From the NCBI RefSeq assembly GCF_024502345.1, contig NZ_JALDNN010000001.1: a stretch of 64,000 nucleotides of DNA. One strand, written 5' to 3'. Shown piece by piece: positions 3,019 to 20,202 of this stretch (the stretch's first letter is position 1; every line of letters starts with the position of its first letter). The position numbers and the translations under genes are program-made. Under the pieces are notes generated by a model. The model was given only the letters and a program-made list of their open reading frames with translations. It searched no databases and was not told the DNA's origin. Source of the stretch: Escherichia coli (lineage in GTDB: Bacteria; Pseudomonadota; Gammaproteobacteria; Enterobacterales; Enterobacteriaceae).

Positions 3019-5469
<2,451 letters not shown>

Positions 5470-14710: not shown

Positions 14711-17401
<2,691 letters not shown>

Positions 17402-17431
17402 TGTGTTTACTGATATGAAAAGAGTTTAACA

Positions 17432-18256
17432 ATGCAGCAGTTACAGAACATTATTGAAACCGCTTTTGAACGCCGTGCCGAGATCACGCCAGCCAACGCA
17501 GACACCGTTACCCGCGAAGCGGTAAATCAGGTGATCGCCCTGCTGGATTCCGGCGCACTGCGTGTAGCGGAAAAAATTGACGGTCAGTGGGTGACGCATC
17601 AGTGGTTGAAAAAAGCGGTGCTGCTCTCTTTCCGTATTAATGATAATCAGGTGATCGAAGGGGCAGAAAGCCGCTACTTCGACAAAGTGCCGATGAAATT
17701 CGCCGACTACGACGAAGCACGTTTCCAGAAAGAAGGCTTCCGCGTTGTACCACCTGCGGCGGTACGTCAGGGTGCGTTTATTGCCCGTAACACCGTGCTG
17801 ATGCCGTCTTACGTCAACATCGGCGCATATGTTGATGAAGGCACCATGGTTGATACCTGGGCGACCGTCGGTTCCTGTGCGCAGATTGGTAAAAACGTCC
17901 ACCTTTCCGGTGGCGTGGGCATCGGCGGTGTGCTGGAACCGCTGCAGGCTAACCCAACCATCATTGAAGATAATTGCTTCATCGGCGCGCGCTCTGAAGT
18001 GGTTGAAGGGGTGATTGTCGAAGAAGGTTCCGTCATTTCCATGGGCGTATACATTGGTCAGAGCACCCGTATTTACGACCGTGAAACCGGCGAAATCCAC
18101 TACGGTCGCGTTCCGGCGGGGTCTGTGGTTGTTTCAGGTAATCTGCCGTCGAAAGATGGCAAATACAGCCTCTACTGTGCGGTTATCGTTAAGAAAGTTG
18201 ACGCGAAAACTCGCGGCAAAGTCGGCATTAACGAACTGCTGCGTACCATCGACTAA
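17432..18256 (+). CDS. dapD: 2,3,4,5-tetrahydropyridine-2,6-dicarboxylate N-succinyltransferase DapD
   Basis: 274-aa ORF with hexapeptide repeats in the C-terminal half. Confidence 0.97.
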
Positions 18257-18569
18257 AAGTATGCACACGGGCAGCACGACGCTGCCCGATTGCTTTCTGG
18301 TTCAGAATAATTCGTCCTACTCATTCTTCCTCCCCCTTTTTTAAATACTTTTTCATCTTGTTTCGGACTGTCATGTAATTCGCAAAACGAAGATAAATGT
18401 GCTAATCCATCCCATGGAATATCGCCACAATAAAGCAGGTAATTTTTTGATTTTTACGCCATGATAGAAGTCTGGAAGAAAAAGGCTTTCTGCGATCACA
18501 GTCGAGCCGGGCGGGCCAGGCCAAATGCTAAAATAAGCACAATTTACTGACTCATTTTGAGGTAACGCT

Positions 18570-18956
18570 ATGTACGACAATCTGAAAAGTCTGGGTATTA
18601 CCAATCCTGAAGAAATTGATCGTTACAGCCTCCGGCAGGAAGCCAACAACGATATTCTGAAAATCTATTTCCAGAAAGACAAAGGCGAGTTTTTCGCCAA
18701 GAGCGTTAAGTTTAAATATCCGCGTCAGCGTAAAACGGTCGTCGCTGATGGTGTGGGTCAGGGTTATAAAGAAGTCCAGGAAATCAGCCCGAATCTACGG
18801 TATATCATTGATGAGCTTGATCAAATCTGCCAGCGTGACCGCAGCGAAGTTGATCTTAAGCGTAAGATCCTCGACGACTTACGTCACCTGGAGTCAGTCG
18901 TAACCAATAAGATCAGCGAGATTGAAGCCGATCTGGAAAAACTAACGCGTAAATAA
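18570..18956 (+). CDS. yaeH: UPF0325 family protein YaeH
   Basis: 128-aa ORF starting [35 protein letters not shown]. Confidence 0.9.
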
Positions 18957-19044
18957 TCCCGAATTGACGGTTAACTCGGGCATTCCCCTCTCCCCTTCGG
19001 GCTGAGGGGAATGAGCCAGCGCCGCCTCAACCTTAACGCATAAT

Positions 19045-20202
19045 CTACCGCTCTTCATCCAGTTGTAACGCCACATACAGCAGCAACCTGTCATCAAAAT
19101 TGCCCAAATCAAGCCCGGTCAGTTCCGATATACGATTAAGCCGATACTCCAGGGTATTACGATGAATAAACAGCGCCTTTGACGTAGCCAGCGGTTGCAC
19201 ATTGTGGCGAAACCACGCCGCCAGCGTTCGTCGCAGCAAGCCGTTATTGTCCATCGCTTTCAGCCGCGCCAGCGGTCGCGCCAGTTCGTTGGCCTGCCAG
19301 TCGCCACGCAAACTGTCGAGTAACACAGGTAACATCAGATCCTGATAAAAATAGCAGCGACTTTCTGGCATCCGCTGTTTACCCACCACCATCGTCGTTT
19401 TCGCCGTACGATAGGATCGGGCAATACTGCCAGGACCGGTAAAATAGTTGCCCAGCGAAACGCGAAAACGCAGCTGGCCGTACTCTTTCATGCGGGTAAT
19501 CAGTTGTTCAACTCGCTTACGATGATCTTCTGCATCCCAGCGCCCAAAAGAGTTCAACGCCGGTTTCAACACCACCATTTCGGTCAGCGAGACAATTGCC
19601 ACCAGATTATTACGCTCGGGCGTAGTCAGCGCGTTTTGCAGTTGCTGTAACTCCGCCATTGCGCTGTCCACGCCAAGCTGACCGCTGTCGACCTCAACAA
19701 TAGCCACCACTCGCGGTTGATTGAGATCGATCCCCAGCCGTTGCGCCCATTCCGTAAGTGCGGGAGTATTTTCCTCAGCCTGAATCAGGTTCATCACCAG
19801 TTCTTCCCGCAAACGGCTATCCTGCGCCAACAGGTGCATCAACCGCGACTGTTCCAGCATCATTTCAGCCGTCATGCAGACCAGTTCGCCATATTTACGC
19901 AGATTCTCTGGTTCACCTGTCAGGCCAATTACGCCGACAATTTCACCTTCCAGCCGTAACGGTAGATTAATCCCCTGCCGCACACCGTGCAGATGGCGTG
20001 CCACCGCGTCATCGATATCGACGACTCGTCCCTGTGAAAGTACCAGCAATGCACCTTCGTGCAATTCACCAATACGCTCACGATCGCCGCTGCCGATAAT
20101 TCGCCCGCGGGCATCCATTACGTTGATATTGGTATCGATGATGCGCATGGTACGTGCCACGATATCCTGCGCCATTTTGGTATCAAGATGCCAGCCAGCC
20201 AT
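19045..20202 (-). CDS. cdaR: carbohydrate diacid regulator CdaR (SdaR)
   Basis: 385-aa product from the ATG at 20202..20200 (MAGWHLDTKMAQ…); C-terminal helix-turn-helix; an upstream in-frame ATG at 20220 is a possible alternative. Confidence 0.9.
   Translation of the reverse strand: MAGWHLDTKMAQDIVARTMRIIDTNINVMDARGRIIGSGDRERIGELHEGALLVLSQGRVVDIDDAVARHLHGVRQGINLPLRLEGEIVGVIGLTGEPENLRKYGELVCMTAEMMLEQSRLMHLLAQDSRLREELVMNLIQAEENTPALTEWAQRLGIDLNQPRVVAIVEVDSGQLGVDSAMAELQQLQNALTTPERNNLVAIVSLTEMVVLKPALNSFGRWDAEDHRKRVEQLITRMKEYGQLRFRVSLGNYFTGPGSIARSYRTAKTTMVVGKQRMPESRCYFYQDLMLPVLLDSLRGDWQANELARPLARLKAMDNNGLLRRTLAAWFRHNVQPLATSKALFIHRNTLEYRLNRISELTGLDLGNFDDRLLLYVALQLDEER

Follow-up and report, generated by a model that had tools for sequence, protein, structure and literature searches.

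Our main finding is that the 313-bp interval between dapD and yaeH in the window—the whole 64-kb stretch of Escherichia coli DNA that was analysed—is probably a deletion scar left by a small accessory cassette that contained yaeI and a second gene, termed X here. This corrects the usual picture in three ways: K-12 is in the minority at this locus, the yaeI-less state would be a derived scar, and K-12 yaeI would be the survivor of a two-gene cassette whose other member, X, was lost from essentially all E. coli. That yaeI is absent from O157:H7-like and many other E. coli is already known and visible in public annotation and pan-genome tables, and a pan-genome study places it among the orthologous groups that are enriched in phylogroup A (PMC5422975). 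What is added here is the polarity, the majority frequency, the age across a species boundary and the lost partner gene X. The features of the locus, in window coordinates, are the following.

14729..17401: glnD, left of dapD
17432..18256, plus strand: dapD (tetrahydrodipicolinate N-succinyltransferase), left core flank, a 274-aa ORF annotated as dapD in matching genomes
18268..18288, plus strand: hairpin, cassette "head" and predicted dapD terminator stem (terminator-like site, fold z = -4.4)
18292..18399, no strand given: scar core, 108 bp without K-12 counterpart
18400..18450, plus strand: X 3' remnant (tblastn match and conserved C terminus)
18451..18569, plus strand: cassette "tail" and yaeH upstream region, conserved in both E. 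coli allele classes
18526..18534, plus strand: putative extended -10, TGCTAAAAT, read by eye from the sequence
18559..18562, plus strand: putative Shine-Dalgarno sequence GAGG before yaeH, read by eye from the sequence
18570..18956, plus strand: yaeH (DUF3461), right core flank, a 128-aa ORF (NF010213 at 244 bits)
beyond yaeH, opposite strand: cdaR, degP and dgt

The interval itself spans 18257..18569, and the absence of yaeI from it, first noticed in a sequence-only reading of this DNA, is confirmed. A tblastn search with K-12 YaeI (which scores 531 bits against NCBIfam NF008460, phosphodiesterase YaeI) gave a best E value of 1.7 in the whole 64-kb window, no YaeI-like ORF of about 270 codons lies between dapD and yaeH, and the program-made list holds no ORF of at least 60 codons contained in the interval, which agrees with the earlier remark that the plus strand has none. 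The same reading was right about a hairpin immediately after dapD (18268..18288) and about an otherwise syntenic core region: the flanks are ~99.5% identical to K-12, with dapD at 99.5% and yaeH at 100%. Two longer frames that extend beyond the interval were set aside as not gene-like, a 109-aa TTG ORF on the plus strand (18015..18344) that begins within dapD in another frame and a minus-strand TTG ORF of 77 aa (18371..18604) that extends over the start of yaeH. We conclude from the sequence that 18257..18569 is, in all likelihood, non-coding and now plain intergenic DNA, which would terminate dapD and promote yaeH. The neighbouring yaeH-cdaR spacer (18957..19044) is also dimorphic, with an 88-bp version containing a CCCCTC..GAGGGG hairpin in the window, K-12 and Escherichia sp. 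E1V33 (L007), and an unrelated 53-bp version in L094, L095, L102, IAI39 and E. albertii L003.

Comparison with K-12 defines what has changed. In MG1655, yaeH (b0163), yaeI (b0164, 813 bp) and dapD (b0166) follow each other on one strand, as the sequence-only reading had stated; yaeI of MG1655 thus maps to this very site, and not elsewhere with a K-12 interval that is also about 300 bp long. When window positions 17900-18900 were compared with the K-12 region by sensitive blastn, homology (~99.5%) fell into a left block (17900-18291) and a right block (18420-18900), separated by 128 bp in the window and by 842 bp in K-12, the latter consisting of yaeI with 18 bp upstream and 11 bp downstream. 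Sensitive blastn found no alignment between these two segments. On the left, homology is lost within the U-tract of the dapD terminator, which reads CCCGATTTTTTTG in K-12 and CCCGATTGCTTTCT in the window. No direct or inverted repeats were found at the junctions in the window interval, and none bracket the cassette in Escherichia sp. MOD1-EC7003 (L013) or K-12. Hallmarks of an insertion sequence, transposon or integrase island were likewise not found: there are no flanking repeats, and the cassette loci examined hold only yaeI and X between dapD and yaeH. Since the 842-bp and 128-bp inserts do not align and lack flanking direct repeats, the difference from K-12 is a replacement rather than a clean indel. 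The clean loss of yaeI suggested earlier does not fit this pattern, and of the alignment proposed to examine it, the junctions could be placed (18291/18420) but the short direct repeats that it was to look for were not found. A microhomology, ATTTT, at both K-12 breakpoints was considered and rejected: it would predict a clean deletion, and the window does not have the product of one.

The nature of the missing DNA is indicated by genomes that carry more of it. In MOD1-EC7003, a 1.7-kb gap holds yaeI, 14 bp and then a 236-aa ORF, X (3172..3882 of that locus). The same pair occupies the same site in E. coli GF43 (L082; WP_096983567 and WP_157916455), several E. albertii (L084-87), Pseudocitrobacter cyperus (L088), two metagenomic Enterobacteriaceae (L103 and L106) and a contig, L091, whose flanks are 98-99% identical to P. 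vendiensis (dapD 98.9%, cdaR 97.8%). Because the P. vendiensis type strain (L022) has an "empty" 112-bp site, the cassette would segregate within that species too. Enterobacter sp. kpr-6 (L089) has X without yaeI. For X, a fold is confidently predicted, without a relative of solved structure, and the protein is one of a widespread ~230-aa family that lacks annotation; its C terminus, EPVPWGIA(K/R)IKQVIF, is kept in the ten closest of twelve aligned homologues, which are 55-94% identical. A distant homologue (38% identity; 3501..4214 of L105, JGI 3300043788 contig) adjoins relaxase, NikA-like and HTH_17 genes, a mobile-element context, and has no yaeI partner. At all cassette loci, a hairpin 3' of dapD and ~120 bp 3' of X are homologous to the hairpin and tail of the window, which argues that head and tail are parts of the cassette and not of the ancestral intergenic region.

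The window therefore retains both ends of the cassette. At its left end, the hairpin has an 8-bp stem (CGGGCAGC/GCTGCCCG) and a 5-nt loop, and folds at -23 kcal/mol in a 54-nt context (z = -4.4 versus shuffles). In K-12, E. albertii, the cryptic clades and Pseudocitrobacter, this hairpin stands before yaeI, and it is also found in Enterobacter sp. It is predicted to be the Rho-independent terminator of dapD. The U-tract that follows is broken in the window (ATTGCTTTCT), whereas yaeI-bearing alleles have ATTTTTTTG; a simple scan still called the hairpin with its ATTGCTTTCT tail terminator-like, with a tail weaker than the ATTTTTTTG of K-12.

At the right end, tblastn with residues 221-236 of GF43 X matches 18400..18447 (16 codons, 75% identity, E = 0.001), the sole significant hit in the window. 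An in-frame TAA (18403..18405) is followed by codons for S-I-P-W-N-I-A-T-I-K-Q-V-I-F (18406..18447) and by the X stop codon, TGA (18448..18450). K-12 retains the last ~10 X codons too, so an X remnant is present in all E. coli. The remnants differ in extent: in the 23 nt that precede TATCGCC, 14 positions agree with X alleles in the window and 5 in K-12, the latter being chance level. Since the window keeps more of X than K-12 does, the scar would not be a further deletion of a K-12-type allele, and both would be independent derivatives of a yaeI+X ancestor. The X 3' end and tail of GF43 are almost identical to those of the window, which points to a GF43-like parent. Breakpoints are approximate: positions 18402-18419 have two possible alignments, one with the very 3' end of X and one with a site inside X, where 12 nt match exactly (ATCCATCCCATG).

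Between the E. coli allele classes, the tail is 98.7-100% identical; its identity to the post-X tail of the Pseudocitrobacter, Enterobacter sp. and metagenomic cassettes is 71-80%, and it is absent from genera in which the site is "empty". Taken together with the end of X, interval positions 144-313 align at 71-96% to the corresponding part of L013, L082, L085, L091, L103 and L106. A constitutive RpoD (sigma-70) promoter has been mapped to the K-12 yaeI-yaeH spacer (PMC3946193). That spacer corresponds to the tail of the window, where the yaeH promoter would then lie; a consensus scan found no canonical -35/-10 pair in the interval.

What lies between the two ends is the most difficult part of the interval to interpret. 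The 108-bp core is present in one copy per genome, at this locus only. No further copies were found in E. coli genomes or plasmids; the few hits among plasmid records come from this locus, in chromosomal-looking entries of 0.4-4.9 Mb. Plain Smith-Waterman alignment of both strands of the core with the yaeI/X alleles of ten loci scored at the level of dinucleotide shuffles, and z did not exceed 2 in an initial global spliced alignment with the cassette. A later test used spliced local alignment with a flat penalty for skipped target bases and the whole yaeI-X interior as target. Here, the collinear score was 28 against GF43 (18.4 +/- 2.5 for shuffles, with 0/1000 reaching it) and 26 against L013 (reached by 11/1000 shuffles); the maximum over three targets, 28, was reached by 6/1000 shuffles. 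The reverse complement of the core scored 17-19, which is the shuffle mean, and among GC-matched natural 128-mers from the window the observed score was reached by 3/652 for GF43 and 7/652 for L013. The resulting p of ~0.005-0.01 is somewhat optimistic, since both the scoring scheme and the target were changed after the earlier negative tests. The best single piece of the core is the 12-nt exact match ATCCATCCCATG to the internal X site, and individual blocks are not trustworthy. We take this similarity as weak but real evidence that the core is, most likely, a multiply deleted, diverged yaeI-X interior. Two more specific matches, one to the yaeI "PPFKILF" codons and an inverted one between the left half of the core and the yaeI-stop/X-start junction (TTTAAAGGGAGAG..ATG), proved to be at chance level in local alignment tests and were discarded. 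The diagnostic strings of the core include TTTCGGACTGTCATGTAATTCGC. Its TTCTTCCTCCCCC tract (18322..18336) varies in length among scar alleles (5-6 C in the poly-C run; a 3- or 5-bp deletion of TC repeats), and O157:H7 and the window are one base apart in it (129 versus 128 bp).

A different history of the core is a single illegitimate recombination event in which yaeI was lost together with most of X, and ~108 bp of unrelated filler DNA, or what is left of a cassette variant outside our sample, was picked up. In keeping with this, none of the sampled yaeI or X alleles aligns convincingly with any part of the core, and the dapD/yaeH site does take other inserts, in Enterobacter wuhouensis and Enterobacter sp. 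BIGb0383. We nevertheless consider this history unlikely, because the collinear similarity to the GF43/L013 interior is strand-specific and falls within the top 0.5-1% of shuffled as well as natural controls, and because E. coli chromosomes carry the core nowhere else, the few hits among plasmid records being the same locus.

The core might instead have been kept for a function of its own, either as a small RNA or as part of a 23-aa peptide encoded on the minus strand from an ATG at 18327 to the dapD stop. The peptide has in its favour a strong Shine-Dalgarno-like purine run (GGGGGAGGAAGA) 4 nt before the ATG and a frame that is open in the divergent alleles examined, including L007. However, no part of the interval varies more by indels than that purine/pyrimidine tract, with a 5-bp deletion in L094/L102 that removes GGAGG, substitutions in the ORF between alleles are ~4 non-synonymous to 3 synonymous by manual count, with no sign of purifying selection, and half of the ORF is the dapD terminator stem. 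For a small RNA, a search of 17000-20000 at a permissive threshold gave no Rfam hit, the only candidate being sroE on the hairpin, whose 21 bits (E = 0.13) fall short of the gathering threshold of 51. A scan for promoter-like sites found none, and the scar diverges faster than its flanks (~94.5% versus 97.4% identity in B2 strains). We therefore rejected the 23-aa ORF as a gene on the grounds of its indel-variable Shine-Dalgarno tract and lack of purifying selection, and regard retention of the core for a peptide or small RNA as very unlikely.

The second important finding concerns polarity. The sequence-only reading had left open that the window shows an ancestral, never-occupied site into which K-12 gained yaeI by insertion. 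This would be in keeping with the absence of yaeI from the site in most Enterobacteriaceae and with yaeI-less alleles being the E. coli majority. A scan for YaeH with one genome per species gave 80 loci, with E. fergusonii, E. marmotae, E. ruysiae and Salmonella outside this set, so that the genus-level ancestral state is drawn from incomplete sampling. In ~70 species loci outside Escherichia, including Citrobacter, Klebsiella, Enterobacter, Raoultella, Kluyvera and Cedecea, the dapD-yaeH gap is ~110-125 bp, which is what we call "empty". These intergenic regions are mutually conserved, with a terminator (AAAAAGCGGG-loop-CCCGCTTTTTTT) followed by the motif TTTTTCGTTAATTATTCA upstream of yaeH. 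Both elements are absent from the window, and only the last ~10 bp before the yaeH ATG can be aligned with it. An ancestral site thus looks different, at ~110 bp and with another terminator and yaeH upstream region, and it would not be expected to contain the hairpin, the tail and the conserved C-terminal codons of X that are specific to the cassette. As the window carries all three and the "empty" genera do not, the yaeI-less state would be a scar derived by deletion and not an ancestral empty site, a possibility that we now regard as highly improbable.

Within Escherichia, yaeI is present in the E. albertii type strain, E. whittamii, a divergent "E. coli" (L004) and MOD1-EC7003. In Escherichia sp. 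E1V33 (L007), which represents a separate species-level clade, we found a scar that is 94.5% identical to that of the window and has the same junctions, with flanks 90-93% identical. The scar therefore appears to be old, since it is common to E. coli and another species-level clade. The same dapD/yaeH site holds a 762-aa oxidoreductase-like ORF on the minus strand in E. wuhouensis (L054 1461..3749) and, in Enterobacter sp. BIGb0383 (L062 3352..4000), 646 bp of inserted DNA that include a 57-aa lipoprotein-like ORF; it looks like a recurrent insertion hotspot.

The third important finding is how common the scar is. Among 5426 complete RefSeq E. coli genomes, 5424 of which have the dapD-yaeH flanks, the 128-bp segment was found in 3338 (one copy each, 90-100% identity), with at least 80% of it covered at this identity in 3337. 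This is about 60-61%, a share of a set that is biased to clinical lineages and not a population frequency. yaeI is present in 2084 (about 38%) and full X in one, GF43. The scar and yaeI classes together account for 5422 of the genomes with flanks, so the locus is essentially dimorphic among complete E. coli, and K-12 has the minority form. The survey of presence and absence thus contradicts the earlier description of the difference as strain-specific, all the more as the scar also occurs in the L007 clade, and an identical arrangement in 3338 independent complete genomes leaves practically no room for the missing yaeI to be an artefact of assembly or sequencing.

Scar carriers include O157:H7, CFT073, 536, IAI1 (phylogroup B1) and IAI39 (phylogroup F), and yaeI carriers include K-12, HS, BL21 and O111 (B1) strains. 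The distribution is mosaic, since phylogroup B1 holds both states: IAI1 lacks yaeI and the O111 strains have it. Over 1 kb, strain 88-3493 matches the window at 100% identity and O157:H7 strains match it at 99.6%. In an alignment of ten scar alleles, the junctions are shared—on the left after CCCGATT, on the right before TATCGCC—and the window fits this allele class. Scar divergence exceeds flank divergence, as noted above for B2 strains.

yaeI itself is unusually divergent within E. coli. Its identity to K-12 is at least 99% in 1440 genomes, 95-99% in 308, 90-95% in 261 (BL21 94.2%) and 80-90% in 75, while dapD and yaeH beside the divergent alleles remain ~97-100% identical, a disparity that suggests several old allele lineages or introgression from the cryptic clades. 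In NZ_CP059288.1 (strain 1506), an IS1-family element interrupts yaeI, which matches in two pieces. Strain BS-04 (L083) has a garbled 297-bp version of the interval, which was taken as assembly noise or a private variant.

These findings can be combined into a model for the history of the locus. In an Escherichia ancestor, a cassette would have replaced the ordinary enterobacterial dapD-yaeH region. When intact, it would begin with the terminator hairpin, followed by yaeI, which encodes a metallophosphoesterase with a Tat-type leader, and, after 14 bp, by X (uncharacterised, ~236 aa); a ~120-bp tail supplying the yaeH promoter region would come last. Three derivative classes would now circulate in Escherichia. 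The yaeI+X class is rare; its carriers are cryptic clades, a part of E. albertii and, in E. coli, GF43. In the yaeI-only class of K-12 and others, X would have been deleted to its last ~10 codons by a separate deletion. In the scar class, both genes would have been lost, leaving the head hairpin, 108 bp of eroded interior, the last 16 X codons and the tail. The scar may have arisen from a GF43-like full cassette, probably by pseudogene decay with several deletions and independently of the K-12 X deletion, and may have spread between lineages by homologous recombination in the conserved dapD/yaeH flanks. The allele counts, the junctions, the X remnant and the cassette-specific head and tail are observed directly; the order and number of the deletion events, the recombinational spread and the promoter position are what we infer from them.

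A more speculative extension, to which we give little credence, is that the three states (yaeI+X, yaeI only and scar) form an ancient polymorphism, crossing Escherichia species boundaries and paralleled by the cassette and empty states in Pseudocitrobacter, that is kept by selection and not by drift. YaeI would then work with X, possibly in an envelope or LPS module that alters phage or stress susceptibility. If this extension were true, the orphan yaeI of K-12 would be one half of a broken two-gene system. The practical weight of our findings is low, since yaeI is a non-essential accessory gene whose patchiness is visible in annotated pan-genomes; for studies of YaeI function, it would be worth testing the protein together with X from GF43 or E. 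albertii. YaeI is reported to be a hit in a T7 transposon screen and is listed in the sigma-E regulon (PMC7414163 and PMC5105897).

Comparison of the window with the other states of the locus highlights important similarities and differences. The K-12 dapD-yaeI-yaeH locus has flanks 99.5-100% identical to those of the window, the same hairpin, the last ~10 codons of X and the ~120-bp tail. The difference is that K-12 keeps the 813-bp yaeI and a full U-tract, in place of which the window has 128 bp and ~23 nt more of X. Genomes with the full cassette (GF43, MOD1-EC7003, some E. albertii and P. cyperus) share the insertion site, the head hairpin and the tail, and GF43 is nearly identical to the window in the X 3' end and the tail (99.3% over the tail). 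Unlike the window, which has only the scar, they carry ~1.7 kb in which both genes are intact, co-directional and separated by 14 bp. The "empty" enterobacterial region resembles the window in having no gene between dapD and yaeH, but it is ~110 bp long instead of 313 bp and has its own terminator and TTTTTCGTTAATTATTCA.

Two more general phenomena offer parallels. Bacterial pseudogenes decay by deletional bias, and the process proposed here is similar in that an accessory gene pair would have shrunk stepwise to a short, unrecognisable remnant of which only the ends can be aligned. It differs in that the sampled alleles include no frameshifted or partly deleted intermediates, so the stepwise path is itself part of the model. 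The other parallel is with genome comparisons of K-12 and O157:H7, which Perna and colleagues reportedly described in 2001 in terms of K-12-specific "K-islands" and O157-specific segments. As in K-islands, a short K-12 segment is swapped for a shorter, unrelated one in O157:H7-like genomes on a collinear backbone. The dapD-yaeH scar differs in that a polarity and an origin have been worked out for it, and in that the variant is species-wide and not a peculiarity of O157.
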